A stretch of 20,000 bases of DNA from Psammoneis japonica (Eukaryota), in contig QPGO01000005.1 in the NCBI GenBank assembly GCA_008632985.1, positions 495,863 to 515,862 on the forward strand, read 5' to 3'. The notes beneath the pieces were generated by a model. The model was not told where the DNA came from. It saw nothing but the letters and a program-made list of their open reading frames with translations, and searched no databases. Shown piece by piece: positions 1 through 20,000 of the stretch. The translations under genes were made by a program, and so were the position numbers. How positions within the stretch are numbered: the first letter of the stretch is position 1; the number at the start of each line of letters is the position of its first letter.

Positions 1-1000
1 TGGCATGCGGAGATCAAGAAAAGTGAGTGCGAGAAGTCCGGAGAAGCAAAAAGAAGAAGAAGAAAGCGCCGACCGGTGACACGGAGAAGGTGAAGGCAAT
101 GAACAGCCCAATGGTGGAGAGCAGCAGGGATGATGACAGCAACAACGATGAGCAGGAGGAAGGCGCAAAAGGCAAAACGGACGAGGGAGGAGACGAGTCC
201 GATGGAGACGAGTCCGACAATGATCGTCAGCTTAGTTCAAGAGAGTTGCAGCAAGAAAATGTGCGCACAGTTGGCATGGCACTCAGTCATTGCACTGCAG
301 ATGTAACAAGGGATTGACTTAACCGATGAAATGCTTTTCTTGTTTAAAATGATGTTTGCGAAAATTGACAAACCAAGGATTGTGTGGCAATGCAATTGCG
401 CACTGGCATGTGGCAACAAGGTGGAGGCAGAAACAGTGATGTGGGTGTGCAGTGAAAAATGGCACACACAATTCTCAATGAGTCATTGCAACATTGGCAC
501 ACCAAACTTGTAANTTCATTGCACAACAATTTTTTTGCAACATTTTGACAAATTGTCATCATGCAAATCTGCACATTTTTAACATTTCGTGCACTCTGAT
601 GTTCTGTTGACTGCAATTGCGGTGCAAGGTCAAACGAGACAAAGACTTCAACGAGGTCACAAACAGCGAAGCCCGTTGCATGCAACGGCTCTCCAACAAC
701 TGATTCATTCATCAGAGACAGACAGCACAGCCCGCCATCCAGGCCCGCCAGACCAACAGGAGAGTGGTCTGTGCCCCCCCCTTGCTCACACACTCGAGGG
801 TTTTCCACAGGCTCTGAGCCTGTGGGTTTTCACCACCCGTTTCACCATTCCCCAGCAGGCCAGAACCGAGCCGCGGCAACCTCACTCTTTCTTTCCAGAT
901 GAACAGAGAGCGGATGTGCTTCTGAATTCGAGATTCGAGAAGCCTATTTTGACCATTGGTGAACCCTGTGTGTGACGAGGCTGGCAACCGTATTTTTCTT
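1..1000. other. TpA-depleted degenerate region, probable mutated repeat/transposon remnant (includes a K/E/D-rich ORF fragment 27-317 and an N at 514)
   Basis: Hand count gives only 6 TA dinucleotides in 1-940, despite an AT-rich stretch at 300-600. TG/CA is abundant. No recognisable protein family. Repeat origin is inferred from the similar signature in the retroelement at the right end. Confidence 0.45.
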
Positions 1001-1087
1001 TTGCACGGCGAACAAGAAAAAAAAAAATCTCGGTGACACCACCCTCGACACTTTAATACAGTACAGTATCGTACACGAAATTTCACC

Positions 1088-2716
1088 ATGTCGGAACGCG
1101 GTGCCAACCAAAACAGCTTGGCAACCGAGCTCCAGGTCTTGTTGAGGCCTCTCGCGAACAACAAAGCTCCGGAGCTTTCGATTCTCGCCGCGGCATCGAT
1201 GCCCGCTGATGCGAAACGTAGAAGCAATAGTGATTCCGAAGGCAACGGACTCATTTTCAAGCACATCGAATCCGATCAGCTGAGACTCTTTGAACGGCAC
1301 GTTGGGCCGTATCAGGAAGTGCTGGGCAATGCTCTTATGCACACTCGAAATCTTCGCAGCGATGAAATCTTTGAGTTCGAGTCAGATGTCGACGAACCTG
1401 TCAGTGGGGAACGATTTGAGCATCCAATCAATCGTTTAATCCAAGGACCTCGGCCAGATCTATGTGTCTGGGTGGGGTTATTTCTGGGGAGAGACGCGGA
1501 ACAGCGAGCTCGTGCTCAGTTTGAAGAAAACAGAGAGGAAGGAGAGCCATGTTATGGAAATGTACTCACTGACATCGAGCAGGCAGCATCGGGATTGTCC
1601 ATATTGCAGTTGCTCCGAAATATCCTAAAGTATCTCTCGGAAGAAGCTCGTCGACTGGGTGATGCAGCCAAAATGCTACGCTTCTGTGCGCTTTATGGCT
1701 TGAGTGGTGCCATGTCGGATGTCTTGGATGGAAAATATGGTGCAGTTGGCCAACAAGGTACCGTTCTTACGATTGACACGGCACTGCCCGCAAAGTCGGA
1801 TGACGACTATACGGATGATGATGATGATGATTATGATGATGATTATGATTTTTTATATGGAAGCCTTTTAAGCATGCCAGCATATTCGTTCGGAGTCACT
1901 CTGGGGTATTGTAACGTCGTGCGCCAGGCGATCACGTGCTGTGGTGCCAACATCGATGCGAAGTTCTATTTGAAGGACGGCCCGTTTGAACCACGCGAGT
2001 TCGACGGCTTGCCAGCGCAGATGTTGCTATGGGCGATCAAGAGAAATCAACTAGAAATGGTCAAATGCTTGGTGAGGGACTTTGGGTTTCAGTTTCGGTG
2101 GTTGGCGACTAGTACCTTCGAGGAGCTATACGACCTACTCTTTCACATTGACGCCGTGAACGACGAGTACGGTCCTTGGCGAGGGCTACAGTACGATTCT
2201 GAGAGATGTATGTTTGTTCTAAGTGTGCAGCGCAAATACCGTGCATATGGTTGTTACCAGCGCAAACAGGCAATGCTCAAGGCCTTGATTGAAGTTGGTC
2301 TCCCGCAAGAACTGCTTCTCCCGCAACTAGACCTGACTCGTGATAAAGAAGTGTGGAGCCAAGTTCAAGCCCGTGGCGGTGACAGCAGTAGCGATACATC
2401 GCAAGAGTACTTGAAGTCACTCAGTCGTGTGGAACGTCGTGCCCGTGAGAAGGTCTTTACGGCGACGGCTGAAGCCAACGAGCATCGGAAGGAAATGGAC
2501 GAGCTGACGTACATTGCCTTTTACGAAGACCATGCCCAGAGCCTGTGGGAGAATCAGCCGACGGTGCAGGCGACAAGGCTTTCCAAAAAGGAAGATTTTG
2601 ATCCACGCTGGAAGGAATACGAAGAAAAGGGAGAAGACGCGTTCCTGCCGTGGTGGGCTTGCAAAAGCGAGTACGATGACACTGATTCTGACATGGAGGA
2701 CACCGACTATTACTAG
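1088..2716 (+). CDS. Intronless hypothetical protein (542 aa) with a possible ankyrin-like helix pair and an Asp/Tyr-rich tract
   Basis: Long ATG-initiated ORF. LLWAIKRNQLEMVKCLV resembles an ankyrin repeat core. Acidic run SDDDYTDDDDDDYDDDYD and acidic C-terminus. Confidence 0.75.
   Translation: MSERGANQNSLATELQVLLRPLANNKAPELSILAAASMPADAKRRSNSDSEGNGLIFKHIESDQLRLFERHVGPYQEVLGNALMHTRNLRSDEIFEFESDVDEPVSGERFEHPINRLIQGPRPDLCVWVGLFLGRDAEQRARAQFEENREEGEPCYGNVLTDIEQAASGLSILQLLRNILKYLSEEARRLGDAAKMLRFCALYGLSGAMSDVLDGKYGAVGQQGTVLTIDTALPAKSDDDYTDDDDDDYDDDYDFLYGSLLSMPAYSFGVTLGYCNVVRQAITCCGANIDAKFYLKDGPFEPREFDGLPAQMLLWAIKRNQLEMVKCLVRDFGFQFRWLATSTFEELYDLLFHIDAVNDEYGPWRGLQYDSERCMFVLSVQRKYRAYGCYQRKQAMLKALIEVGLPQELLLPQLDLTRDKEVWSQVQARGGDSSSDTSQEYLKSLSRVERRAREKVFTATAEANEHRKEMDELTYIAFYEDHAQSLWENQPTVQATRLSKKEDFDPRWKEYEEKGEDAFLPWWACKSEYDDTDSDMEDTDYY
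1799..1849 (+). repeat. Coding GAT/TAT microsatellite (poly-Asp with Tyr)
   Basis: gatgatgatgatgatgattatgatgatgattatgat lies within the 1088-2716 ORF. Confidence 0.8.
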
Positions 2717-3172
2717 ATTAGCTGGACTAGCTAGTAGCCAGTTGAAGTGTTTTATTGACGTGCTTCTTCGGAACCTACAATACTTTTGTTTCCTGTAAGC
2801 ATGGTACGCCGATTGTAATTGCTATGAAAATGTTATATTTCTGGTGAAATCTCAATTGCGAGAAGCCCGCAAGACAATTGGTGCCGGATGAGATGGACGA
2901 CATTATGGTCCTACACATAGTCTATGTTCTCATGAATTGCAGGTGCAATAATGCGGTTGATGAATTGACACTGACGTCAGAAATCCGATGGTGCGTGCTT
3001 GATTGAAGTACTACAGCAGTAGAGAGCACATTGCTGCTCCAGATTTTTCAGCGAATGTGCCGCAGAAGAGAGTACGGAAACGAAATTTTCGCACTGGCGA
3101 AGAGTTTCACAAAAATCTTGAAAACCTTCATTGGAACGAGCTGAGATTGTGTAGCTGCAAAGTCATCGAACG

Positions 3173-4372
3173 ATGTCCCTCCAAGGCAAATATCATCCAG
3201 GTATATGCGAGGCAACAGCCTACGGGAAGCGCTACGGCAAGAATTTGACTCCTCAGCGATATGATTCTCCGGGTCATTGCTGGCACTTGGCAAAAGACAA
3301 GAATTGGTCAACGTGGAGCTGTTGTGGGGGCAAGGCAAACTCGCCGCCCTGTCAAGATCGTCCAGCTGGATACCTTCATTCATCAACTTCAAACAGTGGT
3401 CAAGACGTTGGTGTGGGAGCATACATCCAATTCTTGATTAATAACCGCGATCGCGTTCTTGTTGTGGGCGAGAACACCCGGTGTTGGCTGCTTTCATCCG
3501 GGCGAGTAGCCAAAAAGGGAACACAGTACGTATCATGGGTGTGGGCGAAGGATGCCGAAGATGACAAAAGACTATCCAGCGAGTTGCGATCTCTGCTCAG
3601 CGTTCAAGTCAATGGATTCTATTCGGTTGGGACATGGGGCTATCATACCGCTGAATCGGTAGGTCAGGCGTTGCCAGGATTTTCTCCAAGCCCTCCTGGT
3701 GCAGAGATTTGTGGCCGCTACAAAGTGCTGTATGTGGCAGCACTCCGCTATGATCAAAATCGGCGTCAAGCTTCTAGTTTGCTTCGTAGAGTCCCGAAGA
3801 GTGGGCAGCTCGTCCTTTCCAGTAGCTCTAAACGATTCTCTGTCGGCGTGTCTGACAACACGGGACGCCGAACAGAGCACGTCACAAGCCAAACGATTCT
3901 CTATGGACATGTGCTCCTCCAAGACGAAGGGTCTTCAATCGATCGCTACTTTGGGCCTGGCTATCGGTTCTATGGGTTTGGAGCAGATTCAGAAGCCGCC
4001 GGCCGCTACACACACAAAGCATCCAACGCAGGCTTAATTGTGACATGCAGGAATGATAACAAGGGCCGGATCTATCAAGTTTCCGAGACGAAGGCTTTGC
4101 CTCTCGTTGAGAGTGAGCACAGTCCAATCGTCCCCAGCGCGTCTACCGAAACACAAAGTCGCGAAGCAAGGGAAGCTCAACGTATCTGTAGATGCCGTCA
4201 CTATTCCTTTTTATGCAAGAATTTAAGCCTACCTTGCAGTGTCGCAGCTCGAATTACAGCTTTTGCTTGTGAACTTCCTCCGTTCATCTTTGCTGAGCCT
4301 GGAGATGTTTGGATTGATGTTCGCCTTTCAACACCTGTGAGAACCTATGTCCTAGCTCGTCGAGTGGACTAG
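3173..4372 (+). CDS. Intronless hypothetical protein (399 aa) with an N-terminal BTK-type zinc-binding motif
   Basis: ATG ORF. YHPG...WSCCGGKANSPPC matches the YHP-x(n)-W-x-CC-x(7-8)-C pattern of the BTK motif. C-terminal LCKNLSLPCSVAARITAF is reminiscent of a SOCS-box-like LPxxxxxxI segment. Confidence 0.7.
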   Translation: MSLQGKYHPGICEATAYGKRYGKNLTPQRYDSPGHCWHLAKDKNWSTWSCCGGKANSPPCQDRPAGYLHSSTSNSGQDVGVGAYIQFLINNRDRVLVVGENTRCWLLSSGRVAKKGTQYVSWVWAKDAEDDKRLSSELRSLLSVQVNGFYSVGTWGYHTAESVGQALPGFSPSPPGAEICGRYKVLYVAALRYDQNRRQASSLLRRVPKSGQLVLSSSSKRFSVGVSDNTGRRTEHVTSQTILYGHVLLQDEGSSIDRYFGPGYRFYGFGADSEAAGRYTHKASNAGLIVTCRNDNKGRIYQVSETKALPLVESEHSPIVPSASTETQSREAREAQRICRCRHYSFLCKNLSLPCSVAARITAFACELPPFIFAEPGDVWIDVRLSTPVRTYVLARRVD

Positions 4373-5984: not shown

Positions 5985-7454
5985 ATGAATCAAATATCGT
6001 TTTCGTCAATGCTATATCTGGTTGTTTATGTTGGCTCATGGTGTGATAGAAGATTTTCGTCTCACGCGTTTGTTCCAACCAGACGTTGCAGAAGTTTGGG
6101 AGGGTTGCCTCCTTCTTTGGTTTCGGTTCGAACAAGTTTTGACACGGGGTATAAGCCTCTGAATGTTGGGGACGGAGATTTCAGCCAAGAGGAGCAGGAA
6201 GAGGAGGCTCTTCAGTCGCTTCAAGATTATCATAGGGGAAATTGGAAGGGACGAGCTACATCCTTTTCTGTTACCGCGGACACAGCGGCTGGTATTGTGA
6301 AACGATACACAAGTCCCGAGTACCAAGCATCTGTTCGGCTTGACAGGGGAAGTCAAGATGCTTTATCAATGACGGAAACATTACAGTGGGAAGATAAGGT
6401 GGTTTCTCGAAATACTCCGCTTTACTCAAACATGGACGTCGATGCTGTTGATGCTTCGTATTCTGTTGATTCAACCTTGCCTACTCTCCCTTCCGACATC
6501 ATTGGCACGGACAAGTTGATTCAATTTGGAATTGAGCATTGTTTGGCAACATCTGATGACGAACGTGTAAGGTGCTTTGCATTGTATGGAGTGGATCAAG
6601 CCTTGGCGCGAATTGTAGTTTGCGAAGAAACAAGAGTTCAGTCGACAACAACTCCCGAACTGAACAGAAATGGGAAAAGTAGTGCTCCTCCCACTAGTTC
6701 TGATTCAATCCTTGGCAAAATTACTGAGAAATCTGATGACGGAAGCATTGCGCTATCACGATATCCAATAAGTCTGATGGATTTGACGTCAAACGTTTGG
6801 TTGGGAGACACTGTTGTTCGAGATTTGCCTCACGTCCCCGTCTCCAGTACCGTCGGTAGGGGCTTTGGCTCTTCCACAAATGCTAAGTCGAGTGCATCAC
6901 CTTCGTTCGCGAACTGGGAATTGGGAGTTCAAAAAGCCGCTTCTCGCTTTGAATGGGATTTTGATGAGTCGATTAGCGTCCTACATGACTTTGGAAGAGG
7001 AATGGGTGCGGAAACATCTCCCTCCTTGCCAAGAGCTTTGTCGGGCAGACTCTGTGTCAACGAAAGCTTCTCTCGTCGTATTCCAAAGGAAGAGAGGATG
7101 GTATACATCGATTATGACAACGGCGACCATTGCGGTTTTCTAGTGGGATCGGCATATGTACAGGTAAGTGTGATCCACCGTTCATGCTATTGGTCCCGGC
7201 GACGAGCTCAAAATGTTTCATTTTTCTTTCTTGTTCAGATTCCTCGCTTTGTTTCGTTTTCCTCAACATCTACGCAAGCAAAATCATTCTTTACAGACTT
7301 TTCCGTCTTCCAGTCAAATGCAGTTGCGACAGATGAAACAGAGAAAGAAATATGCTGTTCCAGAATCACACGATTGTACAACTTTGAGATGCAACTGAAA
7401 CAAGGAAGTACGTCATTTCTTACTATCAAAGAGTCGAGAGATCCTCGTCCATAG
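5985..7454 (+). CDS. Plastid-targeted protein, DUF3598-like (two beta-barrel-like halves); exons 5985-7163 and 7239-7454, 464 aa
   Basis: Hydrophobic N-terminus followed by SHA|FVP (ASAFAP-type cleavage motif) and an R/S-rich transit peptide. GNWKG and NVWLG motifs open the two halves. In-frame 75-nt intron CAG|GTAAGT...tttttctttcttgttcag. Confidence 0.75.
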   Translation: MNQISFSSMLYLVVYVGSWCDRRFSSHAFVPTRRCRSLGGLPPSLVSVRTSFDTGYKPLNVGDGDFSQEEQEEEALQSLQDYHRGNWKGRATSFSVTADTAAGIVKRYTSPEYQASVRLDRGSQDALSMTETLQWEDKVVSRNTPLYSNMDVDAVDASYSVDSTLPTLPSDIIGTDKLIQFGIEHCLATSDDERVRCFALYGVDQALARIVVCEETRVQSTTTPELNRNGKSSAPPTSSDSILGKITEKSDDGSIALSRYPISLMDLTSNVWLGDTVVRDLPHVPVSSTVGRGFGSSTNAKSSASPSFANWELGVQKAASRFEWDFDESISVLHDFGRGMGAETSPSLPRALSGRLCVNESFSRRIPKEERMVYIDYDNGDHCGFLVGSAYVQVSVIHRSCYWSRRRAQNVSFFFLVQIPRFVSFSSTSTQAKSFFTDFSVFQSNAVATDETEKEICCSRITRLYNFEMQLKQGSTSFLTIKESRDPRP

Positions 7455-7687: not shown

Positions 7688-10600
7688 CTAGTAACTGCCT
7701 CGCGCTTGAAAAGACTCGACTTCACCGCTGCCCACGGACTCAGCAGCGATTTCATCGGCGCAATGCATGCGGATCCTTTCGCTCGTAGCCGGCATCCTCA
7801 TCTCAAAATATTCATCCTTATTTAACATGTCCTTTCTGCAGGAACGAACAGCATCCTTGATGGCATAGTAGACACTTGTGCCTAGAAAGAAAGGCGGCTC
7901 TCCGATGGCTTTGCTGCTATGAACAGCAAAAGGGTTATCCACGTTCTCCAAAAGAGACACGTTAAATGTCTCTGGCACATCGTTGAAAGCTGGAATCTTG
8001 TAGGTTCCGGGACCAGATGTGAACAATCTTCCTGTAGGCCGCACCCACGTGTGGTCGTCGTCTGCCCATACAACTTCTTCGATCGTACTCCAACCCATAC
8101 CTTGAATAAACGCACCTTCAACTTGTCCAATGTCAATAGCAGGATTGATACTTGAACCGACATCAATGATTATATCGGTACGAAGAGTGCGATGGTTTCC
8201 GGTAAGAACATCAATTTCGACCTCTGCGAACACAACTCCCTGTGTGAAATAGTTGAACGGGTGTCCCTTCCAAGAGTTTTCAGGCAGGGCCGAGGAGTAG
8301 TCATCGGGCTTTGCTTTTGCCCAATCGAATCCGCAGCGACTGCTGTCAAGGGCAAAGAAACCGTGAGCCGAGAGGTCGATCCTATCCATGTGCGCGGCAG
8401 ACGCTACAGCGCTCAACGGGGCATCCGGTCCAAGCTTTTCCCTTACTGGTTCCAACCGAGCCAAGATCTGGCGACACGCATCCAGAGTGGCCATGCCATA
8501 TGTATCAGTGCTCATTGAAGCAGCAGTTGGAATGCTAGAGAGACAAGGTTTAAGAGGAGGACGACATGAGACGAGACTTGCACGATGTGTAGGTGCTGTA
8601 TGTGCAGACTCCGGATCACTTACGTGTTTGCCACCTTGTCGGTACTGGAGTCGTTGACATAGACATCTTCAACGGGGATTCCGAAGGCTTGTGCAGCCAC
8701 TTGGCAGACCTTAGTGTGCAGGCCTTGCCCCATTTCTGTACCACCGTGAGAAACGAGCACAGTTCCGTCCGTGTACAAGTGGACCAAAGCCCCGCCTTGG
8801 TTCATGAATTTTGCGGTGAAAGCAATTCCAAACTTAGTGGGCACAACAGACACTCCTCGCTGCAACCACTTGTTCTTGGAGTTGAAATCAGCAGCTTCGG
8901 CGCGTCGCCGTGCCACTCCTAGTTCGTTGTAGATCCTGTCCCACATGGTGGGAACGTTCCACTTCCCACTATACTGTTCCCCGATCACCATTCCAAACGG
9001 GGTACTCTGTCCTACCTTGTACATATTGCTACGGCGAATCGTGTCGCCAGGCACCTTGCAAGCCACTACCAAGTGATCAATTACATGCTCGGCGATAGCC
9101 ATTCCTTGCGGTCCCCCAAATCCGCGGAACGCAGTGTGAGGTGGCTACTCGAGAGAAAGAAGAGAAAATGTTGTTAATTCTGCGTGTGTAACAGTCCACA
9201 GGGATGCTTGCATAAATAAATCATACCTGAACCGTTTTGCACGGTACACCTTCTGCCCGGAAATTGGGCCAGTAGTAACAACCGTCAACGTGAAAGAGGG
9301 CGCGGTCCATGACAGGGGAAGACAAATCGAGCGCACAGCCACCGTTATTGTACAGTTTGGCGTCGAAAGCGTGCAACTTCACCCCCTCTTCGGTAATTAC
9401 AGCACTGGCCTCGTAGAAAGCAACGAAGGCATGCCTCATACCGGTAATGCTCATGTCAACATCGCGACCGAGCGTCAACCGCACCGGACGACTGCTAAGT
9501 TTTGCAGCTACAGCAGCAGCGCAGGAGGCGAAAACGCTTCGCGTTTCCTTCCCACCAAAGCCACCACCCATGCGTTTCATACGCACTACTACTTTCGAAG
9601 CCGGGGTACCGGTAGTTGACGCACAGTATGTCTGAGTCTTGGTCGGTGCCTGAGAGGACGTGTAAATGGTGAGGTTGGTATCAGATTCGGAGGGAACAGC
9701 CAAAGTTGAGTTCGTTTCAAGATAAAAATGCTCTGTGGCACGTCAGAAAGCGAAGAAATGGGGATGAGAAACAAGATGATGCGGAGCCGATATGAAAAAC
9801 CTCGATACAAGTCACCTTGACAGCCAGAACGAAATGACCCAGAGACTTTGATGACATCGCCTACACTAGGATTCTCGTTTCCCTCAGCAAGATCTTTCAG
9901 CTTGTCAATCTCGCCAATGTCACCACGTTCCATAGAGTGACGGGCGTACTCATAATAGCTATTACCGGCAATAGCATCTTCGATGCTAACGATTGGCTTC
10001 TCTTGCACTTCACCGTATTCCACTTTGACTGAGCGAGCTCCTGCTTCCGCGCTTTCAAGGCTCTCGGCCACCACAATTCCAAGTACTTGTCCGACTGTCG
10101 TTACTTTCTCGCCAAGTGGGAGGAACAAAACCTCATCGTGGACTACGGGGCCAAGCTCATTGTTTCCTCCAATGCTCGCAAGATCTTTGTGAGTGTATAC
10201 CCCTACAACACCAGGAACCTTCAGTGCTTCTTCCGCATCAATCGATTCCATTGTTGCACCACATTGACTTGATAGAATCATGGCGGCCTGAAGAGTGGAA
10301 GGAGGAAGGGGTATATCATCTGTATAGAGAGCCTCACCAGTACAATGCAGTGGTCCAGACTGGTGAGTGGTCGGTTTTCCAACCGTCTCATTCGATTTGC
10401 TAGCATCAGCCGCCGCCTTGGCCATAGGATACATTTTCTCTTCGAGGCCCCGCGCCACCTTTGGAGCAGGGTATTTCTGCACTCCCTTATAGGAAGGTTT
10501 CTGTTCCATCAAAAAGTTCTGCACGCCACTCACTTCGGTTTCATCCACAGATGGCACCGGTGGCAACGATGTGTTCCCAGATGATTCAATATCCTTCTTG

Positions 10601-12871
10601 AGAGATTCGGTGACTGCCAAGAAGAACTTGTAGAGAAAGGAAGCAGTCAACGTCATTCGATAACGCTCCTGCCCACCGGGAGTGATGTCAGGCAGCTTCA
10701 TCTCCGCCAGCATCACCTTTCGGGCTTCCTTGAACGATTCCTGGCTGAAGGGCTTTCCGATCAAGAACTTTGCCGTCTCGCTGGCCATTATCGTTTTCGG
10801 CGCCATTCCGCCAAAAGCCATACGAATGTCGCCAACAACAAATGCACCGTCTTTGACTTGTAGGCGAATCCACATGCCTGCCGTGACGATGCTGTATAGA
10901 GATAAGAAAAACACTCGTCAGTAAATACAAAAAGAAGCGAGACTTCTGCAAATAACCGCGCACCTGATGTCATCTTCTCGTCGGCGAGCCTGCTTAAACG
11001 GCAACGCATACTCAAACTCAGTCTTGACAAGCGGAATCTCGATCTTTTCAACGAGTTCAGTCGGTTCCAAGTTCACCGTACGATACTTTAGGAAGAACTC
11101 CGACACTGGAACAACGCGCCGAACAATGGCTTTATTTTCTCCAATGGACGATAGAATGAGTTTGGCGTCCAGACATGCCAAGACGGGGTTCATGTCGGAG
11201 ATGGGACTTGCTGTCACCAAATTGCCTCCCAAACAAGCAACATTTCGAATTTGTGTGCCCGAGAAGAAGCGAAGCATGTCATGAATGATTCGGACCGTCT
11301 TGCTCAATTCCGGCGTGCTTGCAAGACTGTCACACTTGTGCTGGATTGTACTGAGGGATGTACAGGAACCAATCTCTAAATGAGTGGAAGTCACGTTGAA
11401 CGCAAAGAGCGGCTCAATCTTGTCGGAAGGGAAGAGTAAACGAGGGTACACGGCATGCTTGAACTTTGTTTCTGCGAGTAGAAAAACACGTGGCCGACCA
11501 ATATGAGAGATACTATCTGAACATGGCTACTGCAGAATCTGCGTAGAATAAATGTACGTACCGATACCGACTTCGGTGTTTCCAACAACAATTTTGCAAC
11601 CTCCTTGACCAGCTCCACCGAATTCAGAGAGCAACCCGAGTAACTCCTCAAGCGTCGTGGGCTTGAACCATGTACCACCGGCGTGGAAATCTGTCCGATC
11701 AACTACAACCAATGGCTTTGCAAGCTGTGTGTTTTCTTCCGACTCTGCATTCTTCAACTCGTCTGGAAACATGTTGTCTGGCTGCTTGAGCCATGTCGGG
11801 CTCTCCTTGACAAGTGTCTCTTTGTATTGTCTCATTTTGTCTTGAGAAGACGAAGAGCAAATCTTGCTACCACCATTCTCAATCTTTTTCTCTTCTTCTT
11901 GTTCCTTATCCTTGACGTTGCAATCCTCTGTGCATTCCTCCCGTTCTGGGCATTCGCGACAAGGGGTCCCACATGGTCCGCGAGTCGTCACTCCGTCGTC
12001 ATCACAAAGCGACCTTGCTGCATCCCAAATGGGACGGTACCCCGTACAGCGACACAGGTTACCGTCCAAATGCTCCTCGAGATAGGCAGGAGTGGGATTG
12101 TTGGCAAAGAGAGCATAAATTGCAACGATAATACCGGGAGTACAGAATCCTGTTGTAGGGCAAGTGCCCATACCGTAGCGAGTGAGTAAAAGCAAAGAAA
12201 GACGGTGCGCAGACAACGGTACTCAGAAAAAGAATGACACACACTCAAGCACATACCACACTGGGAACCGTGCATATCAACCATGGCTCGTTGAATAGGA
12301 TGGAGATTATCGCCCTTTACGGTTCCTACTCCCTCCACAGTTGTGATGTGACAGCCGTCAGCCGCAAGGACCGGCATGAGGCATGCATTCACCGACATGT
12401 GTCTACAAAAAATAAGAGGTCGAAAACTTGTGAGAGAAATGCTCTTAAACAGTACCCAGTCTACTCCGCTTCACGTTTTCTTACTTGATTGCGTCTCCGT
12501 CGCCCTTCTTTGACAGCATCACGGTACAAGCGCCGCAACCTCCCTCTGCACACCCGAGTTTGGAGCCCGTCAAATTCATTGTGTCTCTGAGAAACGAAAG
12601 AAGAGTTTGATTGGGACGCGCCTGTGACGCCAACTTGTCGGGGACTCGTGATCCATTGACAAACAAAATGGGGCTGGTGCGGTATCCTACAGGAGACAGA
12701 ACAGTAGAAGGTGTGGGTGTCAGCGTGTGTAATCGACAGAACTTTGATGAATCTAAACGAATCAATCAACCGTGGCTATGCAGTCTACGTAAGAAGCTTA
12801 CCTTTACTCAGGAACGATGGGAGAAGTTCCACATCTTTGTTCTCGTAGATGAGAGTGCCGTTCGGCGCCAT
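7688..12871 (-). CDS. XDH: Xanthine dehydrogenase, 1487 aa, 9 exons: 12871-12802, 12686-12485, 12402-12257, 12149-11562, 11471-10964, 10891-9816, 9732-9227, 9144-8624, 8534-7688
   Basis: All eight introns are GT-AG and phase-compatible; exons total 4464 nt. 2Fe-2S motifs [18 protein letters not shown] and [12 protein letters not shown]-domain motifs [19 protein letters not shown] and RREDDIS. Moco-domain motifs [32 protein letters not shown] and SSKAIGEPP. Residues equivalent to bovine Glu802, Arg880 and Glu1261 are present, which favours XDH over aldehyde oxidase. Confidence 0.97.
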
Positions 12872-13987: not shown

Positions 13988-14309
13988 AATGGGTTGGAAC
14001 AAAGGATAGGCCCCTGCGAGAGCAACCTGGTTCTCTCTTGGGTTGTTATTAAAAAATTAGATTGCTTCTCATAGACAATACCGTCCATCCCTACTGTAGA
14101 CTGCGTTTCAATTCAGGGCGAGAGAGCACATTCACAATATTTGTGAGTCCTACATACAGTACGTGCTGGCAACTATTAATTATGCTTGAGAAAAGCGCGC
14201 TTGGCGAATGTTGCAGCTACTGTAAGCTTTCCCCACCAACCATTCTGTTTTGAAAAACCATAGCTTCTTTAGCGCTTGTGGACGTGGTAGGATGCCGTTT
14301 GCGCTAGTG

Positions 14310-14520
14310 AGTAGTCTCTAGGCTCTCCACACGCATAGCTCTCTCTAGCGAGTATGTTCCTAGAGAGTAGTAATAGGGCCCTCTCGACTCTAGAGTAGTA
14401 GCTACTACTCTCTACGGTCTAGCTCTCTAGCTAGAGAGCTCTACTCCTGAAGTACATAAGGTTTAGAGAGTACAATAGAGAGAGGTCTACAGTACCGGTA
14501 CCGTACCGTGCGGTACTCCC
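14310..14520. repeat. CTAG/AGAG/GTAC-rich low-complexity patch with two perfect 20-bp palindromes
   Basis: agagtagtagctactactct (14392-14411) and agctctctagctagagagct (14421-14440). GTACC repeats at about 14492-14516. Confidence 0.8.
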
Positions 14521-14578
14521 CAAAATAAAAGCGACGTTACGCCCACCCCACTCCCGGCTTGGGAGGTCTGTACCCACC

Positions 14579-14646
14579 CGTTCGCCGGCACGACTCGTTC
14601 GCCGGCACGACTCGTCCGTCGCCACGACTCATCCGCCGCCACGACT
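14579..14646 (+). repeat. GC-rich 17-bp minisatellite, 4 copies
   Basis: cgttcgccggcacgact x2, cgtccgtcgccacgact, catccgccgccacgact. Confidence 0.9.
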
Positions 14647-14670
14647 CTTGCCCATCGACCACCGCCGCCG

Positions 14671-14830
14671 TGAGGACGTGACACGCCTCATAATTGTTAT
14701 TATTTATTATTCGTTATTTATTATACAATACTGAATAAGATATATCATAATACTCTAATTAGGAAATGTAATACATACATTCAGTGTCTTATACTAACAC
14801 TCATAATGAACACGTGCTATCGACTCCTCA
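14671..14830. mobile_element. Candidate solo LTR or MITE-like 160-bp AT-rich insert
   Basis: Begins TGAGGA and ends TCCTCA (inverted termini, TG...CA). AT-rich interior in GC-rich flanks. CCG on both sides, but no 5-bp target-site duplication. Confidence 0.35.
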
Positions 14831-15042
14831 CCGCGTGTGACATTCGACATTTGCGAACCCCTCGATGTACTGTACTGTAAGACACTTGAAAAAGGCGGGA
14901 AAGAACACATAATCAAAAATTGAAATAATTGTTGCCACGAACCAAGGCACCTATTGCGTTCACATTGAACACATATCAGTCAAACTGTCGGTCTCTACCT
15001 CCACTCGCGGTCCTCATACATTAAAAGGGAATACATGAGAGC

Positions 15043-15576: not shown

Positions 15577-15754
15577 GAAGAAAAGCTTTATACATGTTTT
15601 CAGGGACGATTCGTCCCTTGTCGCATAATACATGATGAGAACTCGCGTGCGTTATAGGCTGTAGTACTTAGAGTACATCATGCCGCACGTATTAGTATCA
15701 GCACTTGATGTTTAAAAACTACAATAAGTTGTACCAACTTTAAAAGCTGCGCAT

Positions 15755-16580
15755 TTAGATCCCAGGCGTTGGCTGGCAGTGAAACGGTGTTGGACAGGCT
15801 GCGATCTTAGGAACCACCATCTTTGCAATTTGGGTTCCTTTATCTGGGTGGCATGCCTGACACAATCCCAAATCTCCTGCAACGCTCAAAAAGATAAAGG
15901 CATCTTCTGGTGTAAAGCCCCACTGATTCACCAACAGTTTCTGCGCCTCTTCGCAGGCCACGACGGTAGCTTGTGGAATATCGGTGACGGTCACTCCATG
16001 TGTTGCCCAGTGTGTTCGCGTTTCCGTTACAGGGAACTGAACACCGGCACCCTTTATATCTGCAGCCTTTAGAATACTACAGCCGAGCAGAACGTCCCCT
16101 CCAACCTCGACGCCTGTTCCACTAATCTCGCCATCACCCTGTGACGCATGCATGTCGCCTAAACTTAGCAACGCTCCAGCATGTCGTACAGGGAGATGCA
16201 GGACACTCCCAATCGTATTCATTTTGTTATCAAGGTTTCCACCATGCCTTCCAGCGGGCATGGTGGGGACGCTGTCATCGCCCTCGGGTGCAACTCCTAC
16301 AACACCAAGCATGGGACTCGCTGGAAAGGATATCTCGGCTTTGATAGGCTTGGTTTCGTTTGCATTTCGTTGCATGGCAACCTTCCCATTCTCGATTGAA
16401 AAGAACCGTGTAAAGCCATTTTCGCATGTATGACAAAGCTGTCCAGACGATGGACCACACATGGCAACTCCAGTGTCGCTGGGACAAATATTGAGAAACT
16501 TTACCGACAGCACGTCGCCAGGTTTTGCACCCTTGACAAAGATTGGACCAGTAACAGGGTTCATTTCGTCGCGATCAACT
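15755..16580 (-). pseudogene. Acetamidase/formamidase-family (FmdA/AmdA) gene, 5' end missing or displaced by the LTR element
   Basis: Motifs NPVTGPIFVKGAKPGDVL, PMLGVVGVAP, HGGNLD and LSLGDMHASQGDGEISGTGVE. The frame closes at TGA 16646-16648, with no ATG upstream of the internal Met at 16564 and no N-terminal segment carrying the usual (E/D)TxD-type motif. Confidence 0.8.
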
Positions 16581-16581
16581 G

Positions 16582-16885
16582 TGTTTGAAGGTGACGACGA
16601 GTCACGAGTCAACAACCGAGTCTGATTCACGGATGACGCTCCCGGTCATGGATCTCTTCTTCCGGAAGAAATGTCCGTTGAGTCTTATAGCGATAGTAAT
16701 CGGAGTGACACACACGACCGTTAGGTCATAATGTCATCTCCAATCCCTCGTGAGATCTTCTCACAATTCGTATCTTTAGCGTATCTTATTGTCCCAAAAC
16801 CCACTTCTTATCATCCTCTGTTGTATTGTACAACCTCAAGAGAGTCCTGAACTCTCCATCCTACACAGTGTATTGTTGTATCCCA
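16582..16885 (+). repeat. Putative 5' LTR (about 300 bp)
   Basis: Several TG starts (16580/16582/16586/16592) where the amidase homology ends. Ends ...tatccCA at 16885, 3 nt before the PBS-like motif. The 3' LTR is outside the window, so this cannot be confirmed here. Confidence 0.5.
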
Positions 16886-16888
16886 AGT

Positions 16889-16900
16889 GGTTACGACCCC
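16889..16900 (+). other. Putative primer-binding site
   Basis: GGTTACGACCCC is a 10/12 match to GGTTATGAGCCC, the complement of the initiator tRNA-Met anticodon arm used by copia-type half-tRNA priming. Confidence 0.5.
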
Positions 16901-17067
16901 AATCCACGCACCGGTGTCAACTCGTGACGGAGTTGCTGCCACTCGTTCGTCTCGTTACAGACGACATCCTGTCCAACGGCGATCTTCTGTGTCGCAATCC
17001 AACGGCGATCATCTATATCGCAATCCCTACCCACTAATCGATCCTCTGTGTCGAATCATCCATAACC

Positions 17068-20000
17068 ATGTCCATGGATCCTGACACCGTCAAGATGTTT
17101 GCTGAGGCCTTCGCCAAGATGCAAACCTCGACCAACCCTCCTACGATCCCCACGCCGCTTCGCGGCGGTGTCCACCACTCTCATGGAGTGCATCTGGGCG
17201 GTTCGGCTCTGAACAACAAGTACGAGCAGACCGACACCCGCACCTGCCGTTTTGCCTCGCAACGTCGCCATCCGAAAGCTGTCGACTCCATCGAGCGATC
17301 TCTCAGAGATCAACTCGCCTCGGCAACCACATCCAAGTTCAACGGCCAGATTGAGTTATCCAACGGTTCCAGTGCTGAACTGGACAAAGACCACTTCGTC
17401 AAGACCATTCAGGACTTAATCGAGTTGCACGGACAAGAAACTTTCCACCATCTCAAGAAAGTCGACGGCAAGGTCGTGCACCTTTTTGATCATCTTCACG
17501 CCTTCACTGTCAAAGACCTTGAGAAGGAACATGAGACCCGTGTGGCGGCTACAGGTGACGAAGGCTACGATCAGGGGTCTGTCTCATTTGTGATGGCTCT
17601 GGATGCCTGCAACGCCAGTGCTCTGGTTGACGTCAAGGCCGCCAAGGAAAAGTTGAATGACTTAACTCTGGACAACTGCCCTGGCGAAGACTGCACCGAG
17701 CTTGCAACCGAAGCTCTGCGCCTGCTCAAGATCATGCAGACGGACCATGCGTCACCAGTTGAAACTGGGTCTGCCATTTTATCTAAGGCATCAAAGACAT
17801 CCTCCGAGTTTTTCAATCGTCAAGTTTTTGCCAAGCTCGACTCCGTCAAGCGCTTGGAGCGCAAACATCGCTTGCGTGACCCGGCAGAAGTCCCCAAGGA
17901 TGCCGACTGTGCGGATCTTGGACCTGTTGGCCTCATTGGCTGGATCACCAAGACCCATGGCGAACTCATTAGCGATGAAGATTGGCCTGCCTTAGCAGCC
18001 AAGCTCCCGGAATCCAACCTCGCCAAGGACCACTCGGAAAAGCATTGCCACGGCTGTGGCAAGGTTGGGTGCACCAAACGCACGTGTCCTGCCTGCAAGG
18101 AGCAATGCAAGAAGGACAAACAGGGCACGGCGGACAAGTCCAAGGATGACCCTCCGGATGTCCGGAAGACTAACCCTTCCAAGAAACCACCCAAGCCGGC
18201 CTGGCGTTTCGTTCACAAAGGTGCCACTGTCACCGACGAGAAAGGCACGACCTGGCACTGGTGCGACAAGTGTGTGAACAAGGAAACGGGCAAGAAGGGC
18301 ATGTGTCAAGGCCACTCCTCCGCTCAACACACCGGGAAACCGTCTGTCAACACCGACACCGCCGCTGCGGCAAATTTATCTGCTGTGTCGGACCCTTCTT
18401 CGGGCATTCCTTTTGGTCCTCCCGAGCAGACGACGTCTCCGCCTACAGACGAACCCTCTGACCCTAACGAGCTGGTTCATTGCGGCATGTGGTGTGCACC
18501 AGTGGACGACTCTTTGAGTTCGACTCCAGTGACTACGTCCGTCTCGTTCACTCCTGCTCCATCGGCCGAGAGGGAGACTGCCGTGGCCAAACCCACTCCC
18601 ATCTTGGTTGAAACGGTTGCCCCCGAAGACGCTGACGATTACTCCGAGTGCTCCGACGCTCACTCCTCTTTTGACTCCCTACCGTCAGCTATCGAGCTAT
18701 TTCCGGCCCACACCATGCACGAGATTCAAAATCCGGACGTGTTTTATGACACGATCGCAACTCACGTGGAAGGTCTGTCCGACGACGTGTTAGACGATCT
18801 CGTTTCCGGGGCAAGCATCCTACTTTTCGAAGACAGCTACGAGCACTTACCTCCAAGCACCCAGTGTCGCGGTTTCGAATTTTACGATCCCGAACCCCAA
18901 GATGTTGATTGTGGCGTCGAGGAGGCAACGCCGAGCTCTCGTCTTGAGCTTTTCTGGAACTTCTTGAAGCTCCGAGTTTTCTGGCTGTTTGCTATGTTCT
19001 GGGAAACGGTACTACACATTTGCTGTGCGCCGATTCCTGTCTTACCTCGTCGCATGCGCCGTAAGGCATTCATCCCAACCATTCACGGTTTCCCCTCTAC
19101 CTGGATGGTGCTGACTGGAGCTATCATGGTCTGGGCGTCTGTTTTCAACGGTCAGCCTCCCACGTATCCATTCTCCAATGTCCCTTCTCGCTTCTCCAAA
19201 GCTGGCTCTCAGGTCCACTCGATCATTGAAGAACTAGACGATAAGATGGTGTTAGATCCGGGCAGTTTGGTGGAATACAACAAGATCAAGGCGCGACAAG
19301 TGCTTACCGAATTTGTGGAGCGCGATCCGGACCATTATCTGAGCAAGAAATTCACGCGGCTCTGGGAGAACGACGCATGCTCTTCCCCAGGCCGCTGTAT
19401 CCCTCCAGCTCTAGAAGACCTCGAGTCCTACTTCGACACCTGTGATTCAGAGGAAGCCCTCGACCCGCTCCCGACCGAGCCGAGCCACTACTTTGATGCG
19501 GTTGAGGAGCTCTCTCCGGACTATTTTCGTTTCGACGAGCTGTCCACCAAGTTTGGTTTCGTGGACACCACTCCATGGCAAGACCCTGTGAAGCTTCTCC
19601 AGGCAGCTACTGACGGAACCGAAGCCCATCCTGCTCATACCTCTGTGCAGGTGTTGACGGGCCAACGCTCTTTAGCACAACTCGCCGCCGACCCGCAAGC
19701 TTTGCTGAGCCTAGCACATGAGCGCCACACCGTCATATGCGACACTGGCGCATCCCTGGCCATTGCTTACGATGAAAATGACTTTGTCGGACCTCCAACG
19801 ATCCCTGATGGCCCATTGAAGCTTGGGGGTCTAGCAAAGGGCTTAACCATCGCCGGCATCGGACCCGTCTCCTGGGTTTTCCATGACGAGGACGGCTCTG
19901 AGCTCGTCGTCAAGACGATGGCGTACATGCACCTCAGGCCGGACAACGTCTTCTATCCCCACAACGCCTCTACAGTAAGGAACATGGCGTGACAGGAAAA
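17068..20000 (+). pseudogene. Copia gag-pol polyprotein (gag, Zn knuckle, long spacer, protease), hypermutated and frameshifted at about 19927
   Basis: gag motifs MALDACNAS, PGED.TELATEALRL, TSSEFFNR and WPAL. Knuckle CHGCGKVGCTKRTC and second motif WHWCDKC...H....H. Protease VICDTGASLAI and LGGLAKGL.I.GIG. The conserved RLLSPQ continues in a shifted frame after 19927. Confidence 0.88.

Follow-up and report, generated by a model that had tools for sequence, protein, structure and literature searches.

Apparent TpA-directed, flank-dependent hypermutation of mobile DNA in a 20-kb window of Psammoneis japonica

A single window of 20,000 nucleotides from Psammoneis japonica (contig QPGO01000005.1; positions count from the first base of the window) was analysed, in which two tracts are poor in the dinucleotide TpA (TA): one at the left end, in a very high-copy repeat and its flank, and the other towards the right end, in the gag-like part of a putative retrotransposon. 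The DNA of the window is eukaryotic: introns of 72-178 bases with GT..AG ends are missing from the spliced contigs of run X2. An earlier reading of the same letters (the original prediction) concerned the sequence context of the TA sites that survive in these tracts. The features on which the analysis turns are the following.

1..600: end of a very high-copy, TpA-poor repeat that continues past the window start
601..1053: near-single-copy flank of this repeat, TpA-depleted, upstream of a host gene
1088: ATG of the host gene directly 3' of the depleted segment; a spliced X2 contig spans 929-4493
16630..17068, plus strand: repeated 5' part of the retrotransposon, a putative long terminal repeat (LTR) or leader with approximate borders, not TpA-depleted
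17038..19992, plus strand: open frame of 984 codons (P0001), first ATG at 17068, running to the window end
17069..18676: TpA-hypermutated tract inside gag, with context-blind borders and 17 TA
17570..18440: tract of the original prediction, with 7 TA, all TTA/TAA; CTAC at 17550, 17566 and 18444 adjoin it
18046..18087, plus strand: Cys-rich, knuckle-like gag segment

The frame at 17038-19992 is read here, from its sequence, as part of a Ty1/copia-like retrotransposon, of which it would encode gag and the beginning of the protease. The best relative of P0001, P0002 (E=7e-122), carries PF13976 and PF22936 (GAG-pre-integrase, TNT1-type Pol beta-barrel), and a DTGAS protease motif lies at 19741-19755; a Pfam search of P0001 itself gave no family match. 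A full HMMER scan with P0001 returned 681 relatives at E<=0.001, none of them more than 56% identical, so that no sister-copy protein is among them, and a word-index protein search returned three relatives. A metagenome scan with the P0001 protein gave no match, and an exact 24-base word from the repeat was not found in the viral and metagenome contigs scanned for it. The gag-like and protease parts lie within the window, while the integrase, the reverse transcriptase and the 3' LTR would fall beyond its end. The retrotransposon is repeated, with a contig depth of 1000-4200 vs 59.4 for single-copy DNA; the single-copy contig stops at 16627, after which the depth climbs to 1074-4210. The leader at 16630-17068 holds 23 TA vs 29.6 expected, and just upstream of the gag start codon, at 16972-17023, a 26-base sequence occurs as a tandem duplicate (88% identity).

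The repeat at 1-600 reaches a contig word depth of 17084 (bin 1-667) vs 59.4 in single-copy parts, and loose contig ends cluster at 601. It contains 6 TA vs 41.7 expected from base composition, with rho values of 0.14 for TA, 1.75 for CA+TG and 0.71 for CG. The depletion overruns the repeat end at 601 into the near-single-copy DNA upstream of the host gene: there is no TA among 68 T in 601-944 (P=5.6e-6 at the background rate), where the depth is 137 at 762, 52 at 851 and 64 for the bin 668-1334. Runs X2 and X3 gave no cover over the 1-600 repeat or the retrotransposon, a result that says nothing on expression.

Both tracts were delimited blind to context, by a segmentation that scored only whether T precedes A. 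The results showed that the top segments were 17069-18676 (score 19.2) and 1-1053 (18.0), the next best (10.3) lying in host sequence. Rho for TA was 0.13 in 1-1000 and 0.22 in 17069-18676 vs 0.63 in the background and likewise 0.63 in the host genes between the tracts, and rho for CA+TG was 1.57 and 1.25, respectively, vs 1.13. Expressed as observed/expected ratios, TA stood at 0.10 in 1-940 and 0.17-0.21 in the gag tract vs 0.64 in the background, with TG at 1.40-1.56 and CA at 1.19-1.60 in the tracts (background 1.14 and 1.13). No such depletion was found in the tracts for the other dinucleotides AA (1.04-1.38), AT (0.73-0.87) and TT (1.19-1.63), nor for TA in the rest of the 984-codon frame past 18676, where rho was 0.58.

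The protein encoded by the gag tract was compared with its relatives in an alignment of P0001 with 152 of them (P0002, P0003 and P0007-P0156; P0004-P0006 were left out). At the 16 columns of the tract in which at least 35% of the relatives have Tyr, P0001 has His at eight, Cys at four, Tyr at two, and Leu and Phe at one each; with a stricter cut (Tyr in at least 50%), His or Cys occupies 8 of 11 columns. Among the relatives, His and Cys together make up no more than 6% at most of those columns, the exceptions being 49, 138 and 307. The Tyr share is 0.6% in the tract, compared with 3.9% in the relatives and 2.7% in the remaining open reading frame (ORF). The changes TAY to CAY (His) and TAY to TGY (Cys) are exactly TA to CA and TA to TG, and on this sequence evidence both tracts are genuinely mutated, with TA lost to TG or CA. 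By reasoning, A to G or T to C never makes a stop codon, which would be why so heavily altered a frame of 984 codons is still open.

The sister copies were contigs of run X1, from the same genome; of 174 differences from the window, 40 were listed, 29 of them in repeated parts. Transitions were found at 140 of the 173 differing places. The 29 listed differences in repeated parts include 23 transitions, which amount to 18 events: five in which TA is exchanged with TG or CA, five in which CG is exchanged with TG or CA, five TG/CA doubles and three others. Among the differences listed, TA was linked with TG or CA at 17222, 17446, 18478, 19123 and 19930, as a comparison between copies and not as de novo mutation. 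The window reads CAC at 17446, a place where TAC stands in nearly all copies and Tyr in the relatives; 17866/7 is CAT in the window and TGT in another copy, with Tyr in the relatives again. In the Cys-rich segment, His338 (CAC at 18049) corresponds to Tyr or Phe in the aligned relatives and to TGC in sister copies, with differences at 18049/18050 in three contigs. Adjacent TG/CA doubles between the window and sister copies were seen at 397-410, 17604-17605, 17866-17867 and 18049-18050. Such a double would arise because a TA or CG ancestor was struck on opposite strands in different copies, which suggests that mutation followed insertion and took place independently in each copy. Deamination of the two strands at once was considered as a source of CG at these sites and rejected: the daughter duplexes give TG and CA rather than CG, and the CG-linked differences are better read as CpG decay.

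The surviving TA sites were then compared with those of the background. Within the context-blind borders, 17 of 25 survivors read TTA or TAA (6/8 in 1-1053 and 11/17 in 17069-18676) vs 251/723 (34.7%) elsewhere, with binomial p values of 7.1e-4 for both tracts together, 0.024 for 1-1053 and 0.011 for 17069-18676; against contiguous blocks of 8 and 17 background TA sites, P was 0.0017. A test free of the TTA/TAA rule gave a similar result. The strand-symmetrised 3' neighbours A/C/G/T numbered 22/11/12/5 vs 9.4/15.8/11.5/13.3 expected (empirical p=2e-5; likelihood-ratio p=3.7e-5, 3 df). A 5' A (ATAN) was found at 0/25 survivors vs 178/723 background sites (P=8.5e-4). When expected survivor counts were taken as background NTAN counts scaled by length, TTAA was seen 5 times vs 3.4 expected (ratio 1.48), sites with one T/A flank 12 times vs 35.1 (0.34) and sites with neither flank protective 8 times vs 72.4 (0.11), and the same gradient from two through one to no protective flank was present in each tract taken alone. 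The ratios fit a per-strand model, since the square root of 0.11 is 0.33, near the one-flank value of 0.34; the fitted per-strand survival relative to TAA was 0.26 for TAC, 0.44 for TAG and 0.13 for TAT. TA-poor host windows showed no excess of TTA/TAA (86/228, 38%, vs 380/1116, 34%; Spearman -0.02), as counted in overlapping 500-base windows in which sites enter more than once. The flank enrichment is thus probably beyond chance, as a bias or gradient and not as an absolute rule.

These results bear on the original prediction in several ways. Its lists of surviving sites were exact, with 7/7 in 17570-18440 (17663 TTAA, 17780 TTAT, 17784 CTAA, 17970 TTAG, 17993 TTAG, 18171 CTAA and 18377 TTAT) and 6/6 in 1-940 (233 TTAG, 304 GTAA, 320 TTAA, 345 TTAA, 511 GTAA and 580 TTAA) reading TTA or TAA. 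The added statement that no other TA remains is true inside those borders and owes its truth to their choice: the TpA-poor zone also holds CTAC at 17550 and 17566 (the latter 4 bases before 17570), CTAC at 18444 (4 bases past 18440) and CTAT at 945 (5 bases past 940), and the context-blind tracts give 17/25. That the mutator disfavours TAA is borne out insofar as survival is graded (1.48/0.34/0.11) and TAA is the poorest context, though not absolutely, and the proposed preference for TA followed by C, G or T likewise stands only as a bias. The idea that a TAA on one strand by itself spares the site was not supported, as both strands are hit (Tyr to His and Tyr to Cys) and one flank gives partial protection. 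The suggested likeness to the UAC(G) substrate of TadA also failed: TAT is the most depleted context, and TACG is the best-surviving TAC context (5/11 symmetrised TAC survivors vs 82/456 in the background, p=0.03). A CpG directly after TA seems to protect, although the numbers are small and p is about 0.03. On the plus strand of the gag tract, TACG makes up 4/7 of the TAC survivors (17142, 17221, 17566 and 18534) vs 43/235 of background TAC. A hand count from pentamers found C two bases after the A in 11/24 survivors, an apparent excess, and TAAC was apparently in excess too.

Taking together the observed composition, the Tyr to His or Cys replacements, the sister-copy differences and the graded flank effect, we consider TpA-directed, flank-dependent hypermutation of silent mobile DNA to be the probable explanation of both tracts, with a probability of roughly 0.6. 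The proposed process would convert A:T to G:C at TpA, leaving TG, or CA through the other strand, and would have acted on the silent copia-like gag part and on the high-copy repeat with its unique flank. Its rate per strand would be set by the 3' neighbour of the target A (seen from the other strand, the 5' neighbour of T), with mutability falling in the order T >= C > G >> A. TTAA would then be practically untouched, while sites with one protective flank would survive about once in three and sites with none about once in nine; such a dependence would leave survivors rich in TTA/TAA and devoid of ATA. The targets are a copia-like gag and a repeat of depth ~17000 vs 59, and one tract reaches a unique promoter region, so the process can extend into the upstream region of a host gene. 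Both TA to TG and TA to CA are present on the sense strand; this, together with the affected unique flank, points to resident DNA rather than transposon RNA as the substrate. We infer an enzyme acting on DNA, on both strands, whose own specificity would produce the flank effect. Adenine deamination is put forward purely as a hypothesis for the chemistry.

Several points weigh against this explanation. The survivors number only 25, in one 20-kb window, and the ancestral mix of contexts was taken to match the background, made up largely of host genes; the part of the element left untouched also gives 35%, from just 14/40 sites. Part of the TG/CA excess is supplied by CpG decay, rho for CG being 0.66-0.87 in the tracts, and a conserved Ala at 17604/5 implies an ancestral CG there. 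Thirteen strand-resolved events could be inferred from the differences listed, and two of them fall in TAA vs 2.4 expected by availability; one of the two, at 397/398, may be CpG decay. These 2/13 events show that TAA is not fully immune, in a sample too small to detect a threefold effect. The tract also stops inside the element, with 23 TA vs 29.6 expected in the leader and a rho of 0.58 downstream. The tracts appear to bear the same signature as the hypermutation described in Bigelowiella natans (Mettrop et al., bioRxiv 10.64898/2026.01.13.699255), an identity drawn from the signature alone. Compared with the cut-offs in the available text of that preprint, which were set on other data, 1-1000 lies beyond both (rho 0.13 for TA and 1.57 for CA+TG), and 17069-18676 lies beyond that for TA (0.22), its CA+TG of 1.25 being below the 5% cut-off of 1.52 and above the background of 1.13.

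Some alternatives accept the scars and explain the flank pattern otherwise. The hypermutation could be real and the TTA/TAA pattern due to chance and an after-the-fact choice of borders and rule, which we regard as rather doubtful. The predicted borders do abut counter-examples, runs of TTA/TAA sites occur in ordinary sequence as well (eight consecutive ones at 14691-14722, six at 15741-15913), the rule was framed post hoc on 25 sites, and TAA is hit among the inferred events listed as often as availability predicts; however, the rule-free, empirical and block tests, the agreement of the two tracts taken separately, the absence of ATAN and the unbiased TA-poor host windows all speak against chance. 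The remaining TA could also be new, made after saturation by A/T exchanges or by slippage in T- or A-runs, where a new TA would automatically read TTA or TAA. Several sites indeed lie in runs (GTTTAAAAT at 345, TTTTTAAC at 580, TTTTATC at 17780 and ATTTATC at 18377), and the tracts have some excess of AA and TT. This origin is nevertheless unlikely, as transversions are a minority among the copies (33/173 places), CTAA, TTAG and CTAC survivors stand outside runs, TTAA is near its background density and the one-flank class fits the square-root survival relation. A thymine target, in the form of a modified T, akin to 5-hydroxymethyluracil (5hmU) or base J, that lies at TpA in silenced DNA and miscodes as C, predicts the same sequence outcome and the same flank rule, and adenine and thymine cannot be separated by sequence because they form the same base pair in duplex DNA. 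We know of no such thymine modification or enzyme in the source organism, and appreciable miscoding by 5hmU is weakly founded. Early studies placed 5hmU in TA and TC contexts (cited in the available part of PMC11071213) and a 5hmU enzyme has been reported to silence dinoflagellate transposons (PMC11572971, in the part available), whereas the Breviolum data, as given in the accessible part of PMC11071213, show no TA preference and the preprint text favours adenine deamination (Mettrop et al.). On balance we give a thymine target little credence.

Other alternatives place the cause outside a DNA mutator. In one, transposon transcripts or double-stranded RNA were edited by an ADAR- or ADAT-like activity and the edits fixed by reverse transcription. 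The gag tract does sit in a retrotransposon, and a bounded tract could mirror a local RNA duplex. However, TA to TG and TA to CA both occur on the sense strand, and the near-single-copy flank at 601-944 beside the host gene is also without TA. ADAR prefers a 3' G, to which the 3' order found here (T>C>G>A) is likewise dissimilar. A preference for a 5' U is common to ADAR and ADAT (in part after the available text of Mettrop et al.), but the 3' order is also unlike the fungal UAG (PMC11087585, in the part available), and B. natans is described in the preprint text as mutating single-copy integrated DNA in vegetative lines (Mettrop et al.). RNA editing is therefore considered very improbable. 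Least of all do we expect that the TA-poverty stems from selection on codons or RNA stability, or from CpG decay of methylated repeats alone, with no TpA mutator. CG is lowered in the tracts too, CG-linked differences are as frequent as TA-linked ones among those listed (5 vs 5), and a low TA content is general in coding sequence (background 0.63). Against this, CpG decay is unable to remove TA, 1-1053 is largely non-coding, the remaining ORF is not depleted, and the conversion of conserved Tyr to His or Cys in 12/16 columns is unlike selection on codon usage.

The rest of the window contains the following genes.

~7.7-12.2 kb, minus strand: xanthine dehydrogenase gene
15755-16645: acetamidase/formamidase gene

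Run X2 is labelled 'DNA?', yet its contigs are intron-spliced, so that it behaves like RNA and supports the gene models; examples of the introns skipped, in the minus-strand xanthine dehydrogenase gene, are 7160-7236, 8534-8624, 10891-10964 and 11471-11562. In the high-copy repeat, an ORF at 27-317 in frame +3 encodes a Lys-rich stretch followed by a strongly acidic tail and stops at 317. This could be the C-terminal end of a protein of the high-copy element, which continues upstream of the window. At 806-1078 there are two alternative contigs at about half depth (27.9 and 24.3 vs 59.4) with 6-8 differences and several gaps, which look like two diploid alleles or two haplotypes in the sample. 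The region 14000-14900 has the opposite composition, with observed/expected ratios of 1.29 for TA (up to 1.63 in 500-base windows), 0.82 for CA and 0.90 for TG. Within it lie imperfect CTAG-rich inverted repeats (14339-14372 and 14403-14436); loose ends of X2 contigs fall at 14402 and 14436, and the X1 depth is slightly raised (77 vs 59). A small inserted element is one possible reading of the region, an insertion polymorphism another.

We regard the hypermutation as real and of a recently described kind, and the graded flank bias as probably real; the latter genuinely refines a process already known, with modest support, from 25 sites in a single window. To date, one preprint has described a hypermutation of foreign DNA that is directed at TpA and increases GC, and its available text identifies no enzyme (Mettrop et al.); no other papers on TpA-directed hypermutation of transposons were found by title or the start of the abstract. 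If the flank rule holds, the order TAT >= TAC > TAG >> TAA, with TTAA spared, would be a biochemical fingerprint for candidate deaminases or thymine-modifying enzymes. More speculatively, and with a rather low chance of being right, the mutator may be a reader of the duplex DNA step rather than a tRNA-deaminase-like enzyme: both neighbours of TA would set the rate, with TTAA immune, ATAT most exposed and an adjacent CpG protective, and the process would act on resident silenced DNA, spill into host promoters and occur beyond one chlorarachniophyte. If so, the flank rule would be a first handle on the identity of the enzyme. The retrotransposon protein has been rewritten (Tyr to His or Cys) without a stop, which implies that a long ORF is no measure of the integrity of an element in such genomes.

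Among the known systems, RIP, the repeat-induced point mutation of Neurospora and other fungi, resembles the present case in being a genome defence, in its dinucleotide-directed transitions in repeats, its leakage into unique DNA and the dinucleotide scar that it leaves. RIP converts CpA to TpA (C to T), raises TA and creates stop codons; here, conversely, TA is lost, GC is gained and no stops are possible. Fungal RIP was rejected as the cause, as both tracts show the reverse composition (TA loss with CA/TG gain). The editing of retroelements by ADAR and APOBEC in animals also produces clustered transitions that are fixed in the genome (PMC4866542, in the part available). It works on RNA or reverse-transcription intermediates, on one strand and at other motifs, whereas the changes seen here extend to both strands and to a flank that is not transposon; editing of the ADAR type was discarded as the main cause on these grounds and by the differing 3' order.

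The tRNA-deaminase family shares with the present tracts a U or T 5' of the edited A, the losses here being TA-specific. According to the available part of PMC11472039, TadA editing sites in mRNA need UACG or YUACGAA and Tyr(UAC) to Cys recoding is a typical outcome of TadA; the fungal Tad2-Tad3-Ame1 complex prefers UAG (PMC11087585) and amphioxus ADAT2 acting on DNA prefers GAA (PMC10354150), as the accessible parts of these papers state. The UACG of the TadA hairpin contrasts with the order of loss found here (TAT >= TAC > TAG >> TAA). A UACG core (C at +1 and G at +2) was tried as the substrate rule and rejected, since survival was lower for TAT (0.13) than for TAC (0.26) and TGCG showed no special enrichment. 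The flank rule thus argues against a simple TadA/ADAT-like specificity, of which only the 5' T matches.

The closest resemblance in signature is to B. natans. As described in the available text of the preprint (Mettrop et al.), 231 mutations that arose de novo in two viral regions integrated in this organism were nearly all A to G or T to C and all on TpA, single-copy integrated DNA being mutated in vegetative lines; 124 clusters depleted in TpA and enriched in CpA and TpG were found, in which reverse-transcriptase and DDE domains are enriched, and the candidate enzyme is an ADAT2 homologue, with adenine deamination favoured. The main text of the preprint contains no use of 'context', 'flanking' or 'trinucleotide' and so does not mention the graded flank dependence seen here, on which its Figure 2B or supplements may bear. 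The B. natans evidence is de novo and the present evidence comparative. Both cases have in common the change of TA to TG or CA on both strands, the clustered loss of TpA with gain of CpA and TpG, reverse-transcriptase or transposon targets, and resident silent DNA. The tracts differ in length, being at least 1.05 kb and 1.6 kb here and 25-186 kb in B. natans as given in the preprint text, and, unlike those described there, one of the present tracts stops partway through a retrotransposon and the other runs over into the promoter region of a host gene.

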